DNA of 64,000 bases from an uncultured Acidobacteriota bacterium (GCA_963724825.1 CAVRWT010000020.1:45327-109326), one strand, 5' to 3'. Counted from the stretch's first letter, positions 3,021-55,285 are shown. Numbers and translations: made by a program. The notes: generated from the sequence alone by a model not told the origin.

Positions 3021-4652
3021 TCATTCGGCCTGACCGGTCCTGACGTCAGGCGCCCCCATACGGGCGGCATCCGCGGTTTGATCGTCGGGCTGGCGCTGTG
3101 AGTCGAGCTCGGCCTGGACTCGTGCCAGGTAGTGCTCGATTTCTCGGTCGGTGCTCGCCCGGTCCCAGCCGAGAAGCCCGCCCATGATCTCCGCGGCGAG
3201 CGGTGCTGCGACGGCACCTCGGTCCCGGGTCTCGATCGAGATCCGGGTGCGCCGGGTGAGGACGTCATCGAGGTGCAACGCTCCTTCATTGGTGACGGCG
3301 TGGGCAATTTCCGCTCGCAGGTACGGAGCCCCGTCGATGAGGGGGCGGCCCAGATCGGGATCGGCGTCGATCGCCTCCAGGACATCGACCGTCGACGAGC
3401 CGTGGCGCCGGAGCAGGTGCTCTGCGACTTCCACATCCACGCCCAGCGAGGCACGCCGATCCCAGAGCTCCTGATACCCCTCCGCCCCGACCAATGGGAC
3501 GGTCTCGGTCCGGGACGGGGGGAGGGCGCCGGCAGCGGCGTCGACCGCGTCCCTCGCCATCACCCGGTAGGTGGTGTATTTGCCCCCGGCGACCGTTATC
3601 AATCCGGTGTCGGACACGATCACGGCGTGCTCGCGGCTCAGCTTGCTGGTCTCGTCCGACTCCCCAACCAACAGCGGCCTGAGCCCGGCGTACACCCCAA
3701 CCACGTCCTCGGGCCCGATTGGCGTGGCGAGGGCGGTGTTCACCCAGTGCAGCAGATATTGGATGTCGTCGAGGCAGGCGGCGGGATGGGCCCGGCGCAG
3801 CGACCACGGCGTGTCCGTGGTCCCGATCAGCCAGTGCCTGCCCCAGGGAATGACGAACAGGACGCTGACCTCAGTGCGCAGGATCATCCCGGTGCTGGAG
3901 TTGATCCGATCGCGGGGAACGACCAGGTGGACCCCTTTGGAGGCGCGCACGTCCTGGCCGCGGTCTCCCGCCATCGCCTGGATGTCATCGCTCCAGACTC
4001 CTCCGGCGGCGATCACCTTCCTGGCGTGGATTTCGAAGTCAGTGCCGGATTCGAGGTCGCGTGCCTGGATTCCGGCTACCGAGCCGTTTTCGATCAGCAG
4101 CCCGGTGGCGCGGGTACTCGGGGCGAGGGCGGCCCCATATGACTTGGCGGTGCGGGCCAGGGTCATCGTGTGGCGGGCGTCGTCGACCATCACGTCCCAA
4201 TAGAGCACTCCGCCCTTGAGCGAGGATTCGGCCAGGGCGGGCGCCATTTCCAGGGCGCTCCGTTGACTCAGGTGCCGGTGCTGGGGAAGCGGGTTGTTGG
4301 CCCGCGCCGCCAGCCGGTCGTAGAGGAAGACACCCGCACCGACGTAGAGCCGCTCCCAGAACAAATGCTGCAACGGATAGAGGAAGGAGACCGGGGTGCA
4401 GAGGTGGGGGCAAAGCCGGTTCAACATCAGGTTGCGCTCCGACAGCGCCTCCTTGACCAGGGTGAAGTTGCGATGCTCCAAATAGCGGAGACCACCGTGG
4501 AACAGCTTGCTCGAGCGACTCGAGGTCCCCGAGGCGTAGTCCCGCTGTTCGATCAATGCCACCGACATCCCGCGGGTGGCGGCGTCCAGAGCGATCCCAC
4601 TGCCGGTCACCCCGCCACCGATCACTGCGACGTCGAAAGTCTCAGACCTCAT
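3021..4652 (-). CDS. glpD: FAD-dependent glycerol-3-phosphate dehydrogenase
   Basis: N-terminal DVAVIGGGVTGSGIALDAATRG dinucleotide fold followed by SSRSSKLFHGGLRYLE. ATG at 4652 (M47 of the long ORF). About 543 aa. Confidence 0.9.
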   Translation of the reverse strand: MRSETFDVAVIGGGVTGSGIALDAATRGMSVALIEQRDYASGTSSRSSKLFHGGLRYLEHRNFTLVKEALSERNLMLNRLCPHLCTPVSFLYPLQHLFWERLYVGAGVFLYDRLAARANNPLPQHRHLSQRSALEMAPALAESSLKGGVLYWDVMVDDARHTMTLARTAKSYGAALAPSTRATGLLIENGSVAGIQARDLESGTDFEIHARKVIAAGGVWSDDIQAMAGDRGQDVRASKGVHLVVPRDRINSSTGMILRTEVSVLFVIPWGRHWLIGTTDTPWSLRRAHPAACLDDIQYLLHWVNTALATPIGPEDVVGVYAGLRPLLVGESDETSKLSREHAVIVSDTGLITVAGGKYTTYRVMARDAVDAAAGALPPSRTETVPLVGAEGYQELWDRRASLGVDVEVAEHLLRRHGSSTVDVLEAIDADPDLGRPLIDGAPYLRAEIAHAVTNEGALHLDDVLTRRTRISIETRDRGAVAAPLAAEIMGGLLGWDRASTDREIEHYLARVQAELDSQRQPDDQTADAARMGAPDVRTGQAE

Positions 4653-18277: not shown

Positions 18278-19062
18278 ATGAACCTGGTTTTCACTCTTGG
18301 TCTCGTAGTCGCTGTGGCAGCAGCCGCCCGCTCCACCTGGTCACCTTGCGGGCTGTCGATGCTCTCGACCATCACCCCCATAACCGAACAAGCCCGGGGG
18401 CGCAGGTATTGGGCCACTGTTCCCTGGTACGTCCTGGGTGCGGTCGCGGGGGCGCGACGCTCGGGCTTCTCGCCGCGGTTCTTGCTCTGCCAGTCCGGGC
18501 CCTCGACCTTTCGACTTCCGCCGCGTTGGCCATCGTGGCCGTGCTGGCGATCGTCAGCATCCTCTCCGACCTGAGGGTGGGGGGTTTCCAACTTCCCCGC
18601 CATGGGCGCCAGGTCGACCGGCTCTGGCTCGATCACTACCGGTCCTGGGTCTACGGGACTGGATTCGGATGGCAGATCGGGGTGGGGTTGGCGACCTATA
18701 TCGTCACTTCGGCGGTTTACCTCGCGGTCGCGATCGCGGCCCTGACCGGGTCGCCTGTCGAAGCGTTTTGGACCGGGCTGATCTTCGGGACGGTGCGCGG
18801 TTTGGCGATCTTCCTCGGCGTTGGAGCCACCACGCTCGAGGCTCTGCGGTCGCTGCATCGGAGGATCCACACGCTCGAGCCGGCATCCCGGGTTGCGATG
18901 TTCGCGACTCAGGCCGCGGTTGCGGTGATCGCAATCGGCAATGTTTGGCGCTGGACGGGGGCTGTTGGGGCGGGAGTGCTGTTGGTCGGCGTTGCCATCT
19001 ACAGCTTCCGCAAGGGCACGGCCCGGCCCACCGTTCCCGGCCAGAGCCCCGTCGTAATCTGA
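18278..19062 (+). pseudogene. DsbD_2/CcdA-like membrane protein, frame broken in a G5 run
   Basis: Frame 2 reads MNLVFTLGLVVAVAAAARSTWSPCGLSMLSTITP...WYVLGAVAG. The protein continues seamlessly in frame 1 as GATLGLLAAVLALPV... to 19062. The junction is at GGGGG 18448-18452. Confidence 0.6.
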
Positions 19063-19120: not shown

Positions 19121-20140
19121 ATGTTCAGTCTGATCAACCCTGACGGGACGGTCCGCGATCGCCTTCCGGTGACCCTCGAGGAGATGCGCGCCCTCTATGC
19201 AGACATGGTCGAGGCACGCACCTACGACACGAAGTGCATGGCGATGCAGCGTCAGGGCCGTCTGGCCACCTACGCACCGTTTGAAGGCCAGGAGGCGGCG
19301 CAGATCGGGGCCGCTGCCGCCATCCGCTCCGACGATTGGGTGGCGGGGACCTATCGGGATGCCGCTCTCATGTGGCGGGCGGGCTATCCGTGGGAGCTGC
19401 TGATCGCGGGTCGAACCGGTGACGAGCGAGGTGGCAAGCCGCCGGAAGGGGTCAACATCCTGCCTCCGTCGATCACGGTGGGTGGTCACATGATCCACGC
19501 CGTGGGCTTGGCCTGGGCGGAGCGCCTGCAAGGGTCGGATCGGATCGCACTCACCTCGTTCGGTGACGGTGCCACTTCCGAAGGCGACTTTCACGAGGCG
19601 ATGAACTTTGCCGCGGTCTTCAAGACACCGACCGTTTTCTTCTGCCAGAACAACCAGTTTGCAATCTCCTACCCCAGGTCGGAGCAGACCAAGGCCACCT
19701 CGATCGCGGCGAAGGCCGATGGGTACGGGATGCCCGGGGTGGAGGTCGACGGCAACGATGTCGCCGCGGTCCTGGTCGCGGTGCGTGAGGCGGCCGAGTC
19801 GGCACGCAATGGTGACGGGCCCGCGCTCATCGAAGCGGTCACCTACCGCCTCGGGCCGCACACCACCTCGGACGACCCCGGCCGTTATCGGGACGAGGCC
19901 GAAGCCGACCAATGGCGTGAGCGCGACCCGCTGATCCGGATCCGGATCCTTCTCGACAAGGCCGGTGGCTGGACCCAGGAATGGCAGGACGAATTGGAAA
20001 CCCGTGCTTCGGCTGCCATCGAGGCGGCGGTCGAAAACGCGGAGGCGTTGCCCTTGCCCACCGTCGACGAGATGTTCGAGCGCATGTTCGCCGAGCCCAC
20101 CGGATCGCTGCGCCAGCAGCAGGACGAGGCCGGCTCATGA
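19121..20140 (+). CDS. 2-oxoacid (pyruvate/branched-chain) dehydrogenase E1 alpha subunit
   Basis: TPP-binding motif SFGDGATSEGDFHEAMNFA...FFCQNNQFAIS. Confidence 0.9.
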   Translation: MFSLINPDGTVRDRLPVTLEEMRALYADMVEARTYDTKCMAMQRQGRLATYAPFEGQEAAQIGAAAAIRSDDWVAGTYRDAALMWRAGYPWELLIAGRTGDERGGKPPEGVNILPPSITVGGHMIHAVGLAWAERLQGSDRIALTSFGDGATSEGDFHEAMNFAAVFKTPTVFFCQNNQFAISYPRSEQTKATSIAAKADGYGMPGVEVDGNDVAAVLVAVREAAESARNGDGPALIEAVTYRLGPHTTSDDPGRYRDEAEADQWRERDPLIRIRILLDKAGGWTQEWQDELETRASAAIEAAVENAEALPLPTVDEMFERMFAEPTGSLRQQQDEAGS

Positions 20141-21114
20141 GCGTGATGAATTTGGCGCAGTCGTTGAACAGCGCACTGGACACCGCTCTCGAGTCCGACG
20201 ATCGGGTCGTCCTGCTCGGAGAGGACATCGGACGCACCGGAGGCGTGTTCCGGATCACTGACGGGCTGCAAGAGAAGTACGGGGAGAATCGGGTCTTCGA
20301 CACCCCGGTTGCCGAATCCGGGATCGTGGGGGCGGCGTTCGGGATGGCCATCGCCGGCCTGCGCCCGGTCGCCGAGATCCAGTTCCTCGGATTCTCCTAT
20401 CCGGCCTACGACCAGGTGATCAACCATGTGGCCCGGATCCGAAATCGCTCCGCCCATCGGTTCACTGCGCCTCTCGTCATCCGGATTCCCTTCGGTGGGG
20501 GAATCGGCGCCGCCGAGCATCATTCGGAGTCCACCGAGGCCATCTACACCCACATCCCCGGGCTCAAGGTGGTGGTCCCCTCGACTCCGCATGACGCCAA
20601 GGGCCTGTTGCTGGCGGCAATCGAGGACCCGGACCCGGTGATCTTCCTGGAGCCGATTCGCCTCTATCGAGCGGTAAAGGACGAGATCCCCGACATCTAC
20701 TACACATCTGAGATCGGGCCGGCCCGCGTCGAGCGTGAGGGCAAGGACATCACCCTCATCTCCTGGGGGGCGATGATGAAGGAGACCCGGGCCGCGGCGA
20801 CCGCTCTCGGTGAGCATGGGGTGTCCGTAGAGGTCCTCGACCTCCGCACCTTGTCACCGCTCGACACTTCCACCATCGTGTCGTCGGCCGAGAAGACCGG
20901 CCGGGTCGTGGTGATCCACGAGGCGCCAAGAACCGGTGGGCTCGGTGGCGAGATCGCCGCGATCATCCAGGAGCAGGCTTTCTATTCGCTTCTGGCGCCG
21001 GTGCGCAGGGTCACCGGGTGGGACACCGTCTTTCCCTTGAAGCGCTCGGAGGGCCATTACCTTCCGAATATGGACAGGATCGTTCAGGCGGCCGAACAGA
21101 CCTTGGAGGATTAG
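20137..21114 (+). CDS. 2-oxoacid dehydrogenase E1 beta subunit
   Basis: VVLLGEDIGRTGGVFRIT and FDTPVAESGIVG motifs. ATG at 20137 overlaps the E1 alpha stop (ATGA). Confidence 0.9.
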   Translation: MSVMNLAQSLNSALDTALESDDRVVLLGEDIGRTGGVFRITDGLQEKYGENRVFDTPVAESGIVGAAFGMAIAGLRPVAEIQFLGFSYPAYDQVINHVARIRNRSAHRFTAPLVIRIPFGGGIGAAEHHSESTEAIYTHIPGLKVVVPSTPHDAKGLLLAAIEDPDPVIFLEPIRLYRAVKDEIPDIYYTSEIGPARVEREGKDITLISWGAMMKETRAAATALGEHGVSVEVLDLRTLSPLDTSTIVSSAEKTGRVVVIHEAPRTGGLGGEIAAIIQEQAFYSLLAPVRRVTGWDTVFPLKRSEGHYLPNMDRIVQAAEQTLED

Positions 21115-22564
21115 TGGCGAAGGAATTCAGGCTTCCCGACATCGGGGAAGGGCTAACCGAAGCGGAGATCGTCCGCTGGCTGGTGGCTGAGGGGGAGCGG
21201 GTGGAAGCCGACCAACCGGTTGTCGAGGTGGAGACCGACAAGGCGGTGGTCGAGATCCCCTCGCCGTATGCCGGGATCGTGCTCCAGCATGGTGGCGCGG
21301 AAGGGGAGACCATCGCGGTGGGCTCGGTTCTGGTCGTGATCAGCGAGCCAGGAGAGAGCTCGGCGCCGGCCGACATCCTGGCCCCCGTCGAACAGCCGCC
21401 CGTCGTATCGGCCGCCCCCATTGTGGGAACCCTCAGCGAAGACGCCGAGGATCTCAGTGCACCTCCAGCAGACACTCCGGAGACCGATCCGGTGAAGGCT
21501 CTTCCCATCGTGCGCAAGATGGCTCGGGACCTGGGTGTCGATTTGTCCGAGATCGCCGGCTCGGGGCCGGGGGGCAGGATCACCCGTGAGGACGTGACCG
21601 CCGCGGCGGGCCCCGGTGGCGAGTCGAACCCGAGCCGGAGCCTCGAAGCCCGAGCCAATCCACCGGAGCCCGAGCCGGAACCTGAGCCGGAGCCCGAACC
21701 CGAGCCTGTTTCCTCCCCCAGGAGCGAAGCGAGCCTGTCTCCTCCCCCAGGAGCGAAGCGACGTTGGGGGAGGTGGATCGGCCGCAGGCCGAGACGGAGG
21801 GGGCCGTTTCTCCCCCCAGTGAGCGAAGCGAGCGTTGGGGGGAGTACCCCGAAGGGGGGAGGGGGGCTACTCCGACGTCAACCGAGGACGTCCGTCGTCC
21901 CCTGTCCCGTCTCCGCAAGACGATCGCGGCCAACATGTCCCGGAGTTGGGCGGAGATCCCCCACGTCACCACCTTCGACGACATCGACGCCACCCGGCTC
22001 CTCGAGATCCGGTCGGCGTTGAGCGCCCGTCACGACGTGAAGGTCCCCCTCGAGGCGCTGGTGGTCAAGGCGGTGATTCCCGCCCTCGAAGCCTTCCCCG
22101 AGTTCAACTCCACACTGGATGGCGAAGACCTGATCCTCCATGGCTCGCACCACGTCGGGATCGCGGTCGACACCCCCGATGGCTTGCTGGTGGCAGTGAT
22201 TCGGGATGCCGGGTCGAGAGGTGTGCTCGAGCTCGCATCTGAGGTGCGACGACTCGGCGAGGGTGCCAAGGCGAGATCGCTCTCACCGGATGAGCTGACC
22301 GGGCAGACCTTCACCGTTTCCAACATCGGCGCCCTGGGCGGCGGGCACGGCACACCGATCGTGCCGCCCGGCACCACCGCCATACTCTCGGTGGGGAGGG
22401 CTCAGGAGAAGGCAATCGTCATCGATGGGGAGCTGGCGATTGCCCCGGTGATGCCTCTGTCGCTGTCATACGATCATCGTGTCATCGATGGTGGATTGGG
22501 AAGGAGATTCATGGCAATGCTGCGTGAGAACCTCGAAGAGCCGGCGCTCTTCCTGGCAGGTTGA
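21114..22564 (+). pseudogene. dihydrolipoamide acyltransferase E2, reading frame interrupted inside a repeat cluster in the linker
   Basis: The lipoyl domain (VETDKAVVEIPSP) and the PSBD (ALPIVRKMARDLGVDLSEIAGSGPGGRITREDV) are in frame 0. The catalytic domain (RLRKTIAANM...SYDHRVIDG) is in frame 2. The switch lies between 21705 and 21870. Confidence 0.8.
21705..21867 (+). repeat. cluster of GC-rich hairpin repeat units: two 29-nt tandem half units, one hairpin-1 unit, one full 61-nt unit
   Basis: 21705-21733 and 21734-21762 are 27/29 identical (CCTGTyTCCTCCCCCAGGAGCGAAGCGAs). 21807-21867 matches the 34399-34457 unit. Confidence 0.8.
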
Positions 22565-34359: not shown

Positions 34360-34398
34360 TCGTCCGCGGCGCGGCGGAGCCCCGGCCGACCGGCGTCA

Positions 34399-34457
34399 TT
34401 TCTCCCCCCAGGAGCGAAGCGACGTTGGGGGGAGTACCCCGAAGGGGGGAGGGGGGC
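34399..34457 (+). repeat. full copy of the GC-rich double-hairpin repeat (intergenic, rimO-cinA)
   Basis: TTTCTCCCCCCAGGAGCGAAGCGACGTTGGGGGGAGTACCCCGAAGGGGGGAGGGGGGC. Hairpin 1 pairs 34402-34410 with 34426-34434. Hairpin 2 is CCCC-GAA-GGGG at 34437-34447. Confidence 0.8.
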
Positions 34458-45301: not shown

Positions 45302-45375
45302 GCGGAAGTAGCTCAGTTGGCTAGAGCGCAACCTTGCCAAGGTTGAGGTCGCGGGTTCGAATCCCGTCTTCCGCT
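45302..45375 (+). tRNA. tRNA-Gly (anticodon GCC)
   Basis: Hand-folded cloverleaf: acceptor GCGGAAG/CTTCCGC, anticodon loop TTGCCAA, T-loop TTCGAAT. 74 nt, no encoded CCA. Confidence 0.95.
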
Positions 45376-45409
45376 CTGACGACGGACCCAGGTCGAGTCG
45401 TCCGGTACC

Positions 45410-45480
45410 GGCGACGTGGCCGAGTGGTTAGGCGCGGGTCTGCAAAACCCGTCACACCGGTTCGATTCCGGTCGTCGCCT
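45410..45480 (+). tRNA. tRNA-Cys (anticodon GCA)
   Basis: Acceptor GGCGACG/CGTCGCC, anticodon loop CTGCAAA, T-loop TTCGATT. 71 nt. Confidence 0.95.
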
Positions 45481-45495
45481 CTAATTGAGGAACAC

Positions 45496-45570
45496 GGGCC
45501 CTTAGCTCAGCCTGGCTAGAGCGCTTGCTCGACACGCAAGAGGTCACTGGTTCAAGTCCAGTAGGGCCCA
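45496..45570 (+). tRNA. tRNA-Val (anticodon GAC)
   Basis: Acceptor GGGCCCT/AGGGCCC, anticodon stem-loop CTTGC-TCGACAC-GCAAG, T-loop TTCAAGT. 75 nt. Confidence 0.95.
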
Positions 45571-45659
45571 CAATTGAGAAACCCCCGCTACTTCGGGGGT
45601 CTCGTCGATTCTCGTGGGGTACGACCGTTTCGGCTCTGTACGGATCGTGGCTATTATAC

Positions 45660-49623: not shown

Positions 49624-49698
49624 GGGCGATTAGCTCAGTCCGGCTAGAGCGCTCGCCTCACACGCGAGAGGTCACTGGTTCAAGTCCAGTATCGCCCA
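49624..49698 (+). tRNA. tRNA-Val (anticodon CAC)
   Basis: Acceptor GGGCGAT/ATCGCCC, anticodon stem-loop CTCGC-CTCACAC-GCGAG, T-arm identical to tRNA-Val(GAC). 75 nt. Confidence 0.95.
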
Positions 49699-49717
49699 CC
49701 ATCGGAGGTGATCGCCT

Positions 49718-54382: not shown

Positions 54383-55285
54383 ATGACGCTGCGCCGGGTC
54401 GACACCGGGCCCGAGCTCATCGAAGCCGTATCGCTCGCCTCCCAATGGTCCGAATCCCTGCATCAACCATCGTTGAGCGGAGCAACCCGGCTCCAACTCG
54501 GTGAAGGCCGTGGAAGCGGATTCGTCTCGGACCAGCCTTCCGGATTCGCCACCCTCACCGCTTCGAAGCAGCCCGAGATAGCGATGGTCGAGATCGCCGT
54601 GCCGCACTCGGTTTCGGCTTCGGATTTCTGGGATCTGGTCGAACCGGTCGTGTTCTCGGCGGCAGGGGAGAGAGGGTTTCTGGCTCTGGAACTGCTGACC
54701 TGGGATGGGGAGCTTCAGAGTCGATTGCGGGAGCGGGGATGGACCGCGGTGAGATCGATCAAGCGAGGTTCTCGCGTCGAGAGTGCCCCCCTCCCCGCCT
54801 CCGGCGGTACTCCCCCCAACGTCGCTCCGCTCCTGGGGGGAGAAACATCGACGGTCGCTCCGCTCCTGGGGGGAGAAACCGACATCGACCAGTTGATCGA
54901 GGTCAACAACCTTGCCTTTGCCGACCATCCGGATGCCGGTGCCTGGGATCGCGCCGAGTTGGAGCAACTGTTCTCCGAGCCCTGGTTCGACCCGAAGGGG
55001 CTCCTCGTCGGCCGGATGGGTGAGACGATCATCGGGTTCTGCTGGACCAAGGTCCATCCCGACGGCGTGGGGGAGATCTACCTGCTTGCGGTGCGACCCG
55101 GGCACACCGGGCGCGGCTTGGGGCGGGAATTGGCCAGCGCCGGCGTCGACTACTTGAAGGGCGAACGCGCCTGCCAGGAGGTCATCATCTACTGGGATGC
55201 CTCCAATGACACGGCCAGCAACCTGTACCAATCGATCGGATTCAGCGTCGACCGTTTGGCTGAGGTCTTCCAGCACCGTTTGTGA
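54383..55285 (+). CDS. mshD: mycothiol synthase-like tandem GNAT acetyltransferase carrying an in-frame repeat insertion
   Basis: The C-terminal GNAT domain (VNNLAFADHP...PWFDPKGLL...GFCWTKVH...GEIYLLAVRPGHTGRGLG) is typical of MshD. The interdomain segment APLPASGGTPPNVAPLLGGETSTVAPLLGGET is encoded by the repeat. Confidence 0.7.
   Translation: MTLRRVDTGPELIEAVSLASQWSESLHQPSLSGATRLQLGEGRGSGFVSDQPSGFATLTASKQPEIAMVEIAVPHSVSASDFWDLVEPVVFSAAGERGFLALELLTWDGELQSRLRERGWTAVRSIKRGSRVESAPLPASGGTPPNVAPLLGGETSTVAPLLGGETDIDQLIEVNNLAFADHPDAGAWDRAELEQLFSEPWFDPKGLLVGRMGETIIGFCWTKVHPDGVGEIYLLAVRPGHTGRGLGRELASAGVDYLKGERACQEVIIYWDASNDTASNLYQSIGFSVDRLAEVFQHRL
54785..54879 (-). repeat. GC-rich double-hairpin repeat: one full copy plus a 33-nt-offset partial tandem copy, inside mshD
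   Basis: The reverse complement of 54785-54845 aligns with the 34399-34457 unit. 54854-54879 repeats 54821-54846 exactly. Confidence 0.8.

Follow-up and report, generated by a model that had tools for sequence, protein, structure and literature searches.

An extra half-unit of a hairpin repeat appears to break the pyruvate dehydrogenase E2 gene of an Acidimicrobiia-like genome

We analysed a 64,000-nucleotide stretch of DNA deposited under the title of an uncultured Acidobacteriota bacterium (GCA_963724825.1 CAVRWT010000020.1:45327-109326; hereafter the window) and found that, as assembled, a gene of central metabolism is interrupted by a repeat. The gene is the E2 (dihydrolipoamide acetyltransferase) of a pyruvate dehydrogenase (PDH) operon in an Acidimicrobiia-like genome. 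Judged from the DNA, the lesion that breaks it is an extra 29-nt tandem unit, derived from a hairpin repeat that is dispersed through this and many related genomes. With a probability of about 0.6 we favour a real slippage duplication at the hairpin that gave rise to a recent null or variant E2 allele. Below we present the evidence for this reading together with the other accounts of the extra unit that have to be weighed against it.

Results

The E2 gene and its operon

The gene is the last member of a pyruvate-type E1alpha-E1beta-E2 operon in which both E1 genes are intact and E2 is spread over two open reading frames (ORFs):

19121..20140, + strand: PDH E1 alpha, intact (Pfam E1_dh; NCBIfam PDH_E1_alph_x)
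20137..21114, + strand: PDH E1 beta, intact (Pfam Transket_pyr and Transketolase_C)
21114..22022, + strand: E2 N-terminal ORF, with an (EP)n linker; from 21734 on it runs out of frame for about 96 codons until it stops
21120-21341, + strand: lipoyl domain, Biotin_lipoyl PF00364 (Pfam E=5e-20), in ORF 21114..22022
21492-21596, + strand: E3-binding domain, E3_binding PF02817 (Pfam E=1e-16), in ORF 21114..22022
21624..21706, + strand: Glu-Pro-rich native linker (EPEPEP...), TRF periods 6/18/20, aligning with the (EP)n linkers of orthologues
21764..22564, + strand: E2 C-terminal ORF, carrying the catalytic domain
21884-22555, + strand: catalytic domain, 2-oxoacid_dh PF00198 (Pfam E=1e-75), in ORF 21764..22564

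The E1alpha protein scores 435.6 bits against the NCBIfam equivalog PDH_E1_alph_x (cut-off 411.35), which assigns it to the pyruvate type. The order E1alpha-E1beta-E2 is kept in loci L002, L003 and L117, and the neighbours of the operon (FtsK, a membrane protein, a CMD-family protein, peptidase S10, an HTH regulator, malate synthase and isocitrate lyase) are syntenic in three related metagenomic contigs. A second E2 paralogue was not found within the 64-kb window. Elsewhere in the window a tRNA cluster (Gly-GCC, Cys-GCA and Val-GAC) lies at 45302-45571 and a separate tRNA-Val-CAC at 49624-49701, with nothing unusual about them.

The C-terminal ORF contains the active-site motif DHRVIDG, embedded in SYDHRVIDGG, in agreement with the DHRxxDG consensus. 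In its domain order, this motif, its operon and its 93% identity to the closest orthologue the gene resembles the canonical single-chain bacterial PDH E2 (lipoyl, PSBD, core). The canonical enzyme is unbroken, whereas here the chain is interrupted in the PSBD-core linker as assembled. Pfam assignments and an ORF scan show that the catalytic domain is read in a different frame from the lipoyl and E3-binding domains, as had been claimed in a first interpretation made from the DNA without database searches (hereafter the sequence-only reading). The E2 domains as assembled are therefore not on a single polypeptide, being divided between two ORFs in different frames. Frames 0 and 2 are both open across 21686-22022. 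The DNA just 5' of the (EP)n run, at 21616-21660, gives GESNPSRSLEARANPP in frame 0 and VEPEPEP in another frame, possibly the trace of two old frameshifts that compensate each other within the low-complexity linker.

The extra 29-nt unit

At 21701-21761 TRF detected an array of 2.1 copies with a period of 29 nt (96% matches, score 115). In the best register, 21704-21732 against 21733-21761, the two copies are identical at 28 of 29 positions; this holds for register starts from 21701 to 21704, and the sole base differing between the copies is T21710 versus C21739. We take the first copy as the extra one:

21704..21732, + strand: extra 29-nt unit, comprising a 3-nt flank, the 5' arm and the loop of the hairpin repeat; frame-breaking (29 mod 3 = 2)

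The sequence-only reading had set 21705-21733 against 21734-21762 as a tandem pair with 27 of 29 identities. The sequence does read as quoted there, but of the two mismatches counted only T21710/C21739 is a true difference. The unit is flanked by CGAG at 21701-21704 and by CGAC at 21759-21762, so that duplication of 21704-21732 gives the G at 21733 directly, and the second mismatch, G21733 versus C21762, arises from the register that had been chosen. With a single mismatch left, the case against an artefact is weaker than it had first been made.

Removal of either copy yields one continuous ORF of 473 aa, as had been proposed for the deletion of one copy, and both copies encode PVSSPRSEA, each in its own frame. 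The restored peptide PVSSPRSEATLGEVDRPQAETEGA agrees with that of the single-unit orthologues P0001, P0004, P0005 and P0016. The extra unit is missing from the DNA of locus L001. In the remainder of 21734-21867 the C/G runs have lengths equal to those of in-frame orthologous DNA (L001, L002 and L003), which leaves the extra unit as the linker's sole anomaly in length. The catalytic domain falls in the -1 frame because the 29-nt unit leaves the ribosome one base out of register.

A dispersed hairpin repeat

The extra unit had been placed inside a repeat cluster. Repeats are indeed present at the site, but they are not merely local, belonging to a hairpin family that is found genome-wide and clade-wide. 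The repeat is about 62-68 nt long and its 20-mer core has 5 matches in the window against 0.02 expected. Four full copies were found in the window:

21737..21804, + strand: full copy A, with an orthologous copy in L001 and L003; the catalytic frame reads VSSPRSEATLGEVDRPQAETEGA
21806..21867, + strand: full copy B, not at the same position in L001 or L003; the catalytic frame reads VSPPSERSERWGEYPEGGRGA
34398..34457, + strand: intergenic copy between rimO and cinA, 39 nt past the rimO stop codon
54785..54879, - strand: copy whose 5' half is duplicated in tandem, in frame, with a 33-nt period, between the halves of the MshD-like ORF 54383..55285, opposite strand

The order of elements is a C-rich arm (GTTTCCTCCCCC or GTTTCTCCCCCC), a conserved 16-nt loop (AGGAGCGAAGCGACGT), a G-rich arm complementary to the C-rich arm, a second hairpin and a tail, GGAGGGGG(G)C. 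The sequence of hairpin 2 varies and stays self-complementary (CCCC-GAA-GGGG, CCGCC-GGA-GGCGG, TCGGCC-GCA-GGCCGA and many others). In copy A, stem 1 is formed by CTCCTCCCCC/GGGGGAGG, hairpin 2 is TCGGCC-GCA-GGCCGA and the 3' end is GGAGGGGGC. The peptide type encoded by copy B is also present in orthologues P0002, P0003, P0027 and P0028. Stem 1 covaries, with CCT/AGG in 15 and CTC/GAG in 13 of 32 aligned copies. Single-strand DNA folding of 21695-21880 gave a structure not significantly stabler than shuffles (z = -1.6), so support for the structure rests on covariation.

In the MshD-like (mycothiol synthase-like) GNAT acetyltransferase ORF the copy at 54785-54879 lies antisense and in frame at residues 135-166, and its duplicated 5' half encodes VAPLLGGETST-VAPLLGGETDI. 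The copy at 34398-34457 may act as a terminator or an mRNA-stabilising hairpin, by analogy with what REPs do.

Among the matches listed, an exact 27-mer over the loop and both arms was found in species-representative genomes in more than 112 stretches, and the carriers among these matches are all MAGs titled Acidimicrobiia, Actinomycetota or 'uncultured Acidobacteriota'. The last of these titles is probably a placeholder, since locus L117, which is so titled, is syntenic with the window and has a PDH operon that is about 88% identical. A search of Rfam with the repeat returned nothing at the gathering threshold and, at E values up to 10, chance-level matches only, the best being whalefall-1 with 20 bits against a gathering score of 37. 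A literature search with a 13-mer of the loop found no description of the repeat, its sole return being an unrelated Legionella paper. This G/C-rich hairpin repeat of Acidimicrobiia-type genomes is apparently undescribed.

Orthologues keep E2 in one chain and translate the repeat

A search with the restored E2 protein returned 7,810 relatives, of which the best 120 were analysed; the named ones among them are Acidimicrobiia MAG proteins. Each of the 120 is a single chain of 413-473 aa that contains all three Pfam domains, so the orthologues do not naturally split at the linker. Orthologues with naturally separate lipoyl/PSBD and core polypeptides, which the sequence-only reading had named as a finding that would overturn it, were thus not encountered in this set. 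An alignment of the restored E2 with 19 orthologues showed that differences concentrate in the linker between the E3-binding domain and the core, and the closest orthologue, P0001 (93% identity), has exactly one unit at the site.

Repeat motifs are translated in frame in 13 of the best 120 orthologues (P0001-P0005, P0012, P0016, P0017, P0021, P0022, P0027, P0028 and P0052), and all 13 are intact. The linker peptides encoded by the repeat are PVSPPGSEATLGEVDRPQAETEGA in P0001, SPPSEQSERWGE.PEGGRGAT in P0002 and P0003, LPPANEVSVGGSAGEAGRG in P0012 and P0022, and SPQERSDVGGSAGEAGRG in P0027, and together show the one DNA element read in three frames or more. At the DNA level, L001, with about 90% nucleotide identity, shows a single 5' unit in its copy A and no copy B in the alignment. 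In L003 part of the arm of copy A is reiterated, which adds 12 nt in frame, and copy B stands elsewhere in the linker; L002 has copy B only. The linker position of copy B thus differs among L002, L003 and the window.

The window E2 carries no lineage-unique substitution at otherwise invariant columns and both of its halves look fully conserved, which indicates that the break, if real, is young or tolerated. Protein look-ups together with genome and metagenome DNA scans found no sequence from the same species among the matches listed, the closest DNA among these being 88-90% identical. In the metagenome DNA scan a 26-mer across the A/B junction had 0 matches, and a 33-mer of copy A had one match, in L116, an unrelated dispersed copy.

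Tandem reiteration of the 5' half-unit

Across the loci analysed, a fuzzy search matched the core 716 times and yielded 31 candidate arrays, of which about 27 are clear. In the clear arrays 2-5 tandem 5' half-units, with a period that ranges from 23 to 38 nt, precede a single complete element. Loci L032, L059, L051, L085 and L007 carry 3-5 half-units with periods of 28, 33, 32, 32 and 36 nt, the complete element coming last in each. Units are nearly identical within an array and periods differ between arrays, which points to local duplication, most simply, we infer, by slippage or template switching at the stable C/G hairpin. We know of no description of such minisatellite-like growth by half-units for REP-type repeats. 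Both MEGAHIT (k141_) and SPAdes (NODE_) contigs are found among the arrays, so half-unit reiteration is not tied to one sequencing technology. In the four coding-context arrays that were read the added lengths are 12 nt (L003), 30 and 30 nt (L117) and 33 nt (the MshD-like ORF), all divisible by three. The 29-nt unit of the window E2 is the exception to this frame-keeping.

The recurrence of half-unit arrays, Illumina-type assemblies included, favours real slippage over stutter. The alternative would be that the extra copy was created in assembly or polishing, by the mis-joining of a T and a C haplotype or by hairpin-stalled reads, and that the true E2 is a 473-aa protein with one unit. Such an origin would fit with the perfect ORF that is left when one copy is removed and that agrees with the orthologues, as well as with the lack of any visible relaxation of constraint on either E2 half; the T/C difference could then be a population polymorphism, and the contig has at least one other indel-type frame break (see below). 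Tandem half-unit arrays are, however, present in many independent assemblies made with different technologies, and one stands in frame at 54785-54879 in the window. An array of 58 nt is normally resolved by long reads, and stutter should give identical copies. We consider an artefactual copy unlikely.

Possible signs of technical error in the contig

In the conserved membrane-protein gene at 18278..19062, a translated comparison with 17 genes of L002 showed that the frame changes at the G-run 18448-18452. The run is one base short, the homologous runs being G6 in L003 and G7 in L117, and on its sequence it looks like a typical homopolymer indel. This frameshift, about 3 kb upstream of E2, indicates that the indel accuracy of the contig is imperfect. 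In L117 (ERZ25039492 contig_18078), a long-read MAG contig, E1alpha, E2 and the HTH regulator are all broken, and its E2 is broken where the first A-type copy of the same linker has lost 2 nt (GAGA to GA). That linker, at 3680-4100, contains one full B-type copy and two modules, each made of a 30-nt B-type half-unit and a full A-type copy. Microflora Danica (MFD) MAGs, including L117 and L002, are Nanopore-only and Medaka-polished (PMC12313526), and the window contig presumably stems from similar Nanopore data. Clustered at 90% with the window's E2 C-terminal product are one intact JGI protein and three more fragments, which stem from ENA or NCBI+ENA assemblies. A GC3 frame-plot of the window did not separate frameshifts from ordinary gene boundaries.

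These observations bear on a further possibility, in which the duplication is real and the gene is intact, the true unit being 30 nt long, for example with a C6 run or an extra base at the junction, perhaps through a compensating insertion, and one base having been lost in assembly. The protein would then be about 483 aa long, with PVSSP...E-PVSSPRSEATLGEV in its linker. A single added base anywhere in 21686-21884 restores the frame, and of the 141 G/C runs of at least 5 in the window, 8 fall in this zone. The L117 linker offers a model in its in-frame 30-nt half-units followed by a full unit, and both the one-base-short G-run at 18448-18452, which breaks another gene 3 kb upstream, and the Nanopore-only origin of the related MFD long-read MAGs (PMC12313526), if the window shares it, would make such a loss plausible. 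Against this, the extra unit contains a single run, C5 at 21715, and unit 1 has the same length as unit 2 and the canonical run lengths of the repeat family; most copies, those in Illumina assemblies included, pair GGGGGAGG with the arm CCTCCCCC, whose terminal run is five Cs. An intact gene would moreover require an extra coincidence beyond the duplication, and we hold it to be distinctly unlikely.

Could the two E2 fragments be functional?

The repeat itself supplies signals from which the core might be translated on its own:

21749..21766, + strand: Shine-Dalgarno-like AGGAG plus TTG start from the repeat, with AGGAG at 21749-21753 in the loop, 10 nt 5' of TTG 21764

The split could accordingly be real and tolerated, with the core made from TTG 21764 and the lipoyl/E3-binding fragment acting in trans, or with a low-level -1 slip rejoining the frames. 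TTG 21764 follows AGGAG after 10 nt, and the public gene call does start there (266 aa, P0151), as does that of L117 (P0154). The frame-0 part of the overlap contains two X_XXY_YYZ heptamers, C_CCC_CCA (21812) and G_GGG_GGA (21854), and both E2 halves look fully conserved. An actinobacterial precedent is provided by OdhA with AceF in Corynebacterium, which passages of two papers (PMC10415282, PMC7568260) present as a transferase core using the lipoyl domains of another polypeptide. The two-ORF architecture is, however, seen in no intact orthologue among the best 120. TTG 21764, which had been located inside a hairpin arm by the sequence-only reading, does lie in the 3' arm and is buried in the stem. 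The heptamers are the C6 and G6 runs that form the hairpin arms, with no structure 5-9 nt downstream, and an E3-binding domain detached from the core would, by the established architecture of E2, untether E1 and E3. A tolerated split is in our view very unlikely. A programmed -1 ribosomal frameshift site was considered as a candidate in its own right and is unlikely, as there is no downstream stimulator and the orthologues are single-frame.

One may also imagine a hypermutable linker, in which gain and loss of half-units toggles E2 between one chain, two chains and off, and AGGAG-N10-TTG re-initiates the core. We give this scenario only a very slim chance. If true, it would amount to a reversible repeat-driven switch in an enzyme of central metabolism, not a dead gene.

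Discussion

Our preferred reading remains a real slippage duplication at the hairpin, leading to a recent null or variant allele of E2. On this reading two copies of the dispersed hairpin repeat have colonised the flexible linker between the E3-binding and catalytic domains, where relatives simply translate repeat copies as added linker. The contig carries a tandem duplicate of the first copy's 5' arm and loop, with breakpoints in the short homology CGAG...CGAC; slippage during replication, or a template switch, at the stable C5/G5 hairpin is the likely mechanism. As assembled, the fragment with the lipoyl and E3-binding domains runs into a nonsense tail, and the core stands in an ORF of its own. 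The lesion itself is an ordinary slipped-strand frameshift. It is probably young, and may represent a null or variant allele that arose recently in the population sampled and not an old pseudogene. The extra unit is a canonical half-unit with the family's usual run lengths, which supports a real lesion. On the other side, a null allele of the only E2 of a PDH operon would be unexpected for a population consensus, and the T/C difference between the copies does not sit easily with a brand-new duplication, unless two alleles were joined in the event. The sequence-only reading of the lesion stands in its extra unit, and the single-chain orthologues agree with it; it is amended in its mismatch count, in the scope of the repeat family and by the possible signs of technical origin described above.

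For annotation, the E2 gene should be flagged as frameshifted at 21704-21732 and not called as two genes. More broadly, the repeat is routinely absorbed in frame into flexible protein linkers and expands by half-unit slippage. It also calls for caution with long-read MAGs, where real and technical frameshifts are hard to separate in repeats rich in C/G runs.

The lesion invites comparison with contingency-locus switching, with which it shares a change in tandem copy number, a unit that is not a multiple of three and a downstream frame that is thrown off. Classical contingency loci have units of 1-7 nt, are found in genes for surface or restriction functions and show within-strain variation, whereas the E2 site has a 29-nt unit, lies in a gene of central metabolism and is known from one assembled sequence.

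The repeat family has its nearest counterparts in two other systems. REP and REPIN elements, which are mobilised by RAYT transposases (PMC3116915, PMC3337134), are likewise short imperfect G/C-rich palindromes that occur in many copies and in inverted or tandem clusters often just outside genes, and in the present family many loci have head-to-head partners and the copy at 34398 is intergenic. REPs are extragenic by definition, however, and here several copies are intragenic and some are in direct orientation; the conserved 16-nt loop and the variable second hairpin are also untypical of REP anatomy.

The Rickettsia palindromic elements (RPEs; Ogata et al. 2000) are described, in a passage of PMC10969869, as in-frame inserts in protein-coding genes. 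Both RPEs and our repeat are dispersed palindromes that sit within genes, in frame, and are translated as an added peptide while the host protein is kept. The likeness is seen here in 13 of the best 120 E2 orthologues and in the MshD-like ORF: a multi-copy hairpin is inserted in frame in intact genes, at positions that differ between lineages. RPEs measure about 100-150 bp and are confined to Rickettsia, whereas this repeat is about 62-68 nt long, very G/C-rich and found in Acidimicrobiia-type MAGs; unlike RPEs it is read in at least three frames, lies on both strands and grows by tandem reiteration of its 5' half. By sequence, size and taxon (its carriers belong to another phylum) it does not belong to the RPE families, and the relation is one of analogy only. 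As such an analogue, the repeat provides an actinobacterial parallel to the RPEs of Rickettsia and a natural source of variation in linker length and of occasional gene breakage.
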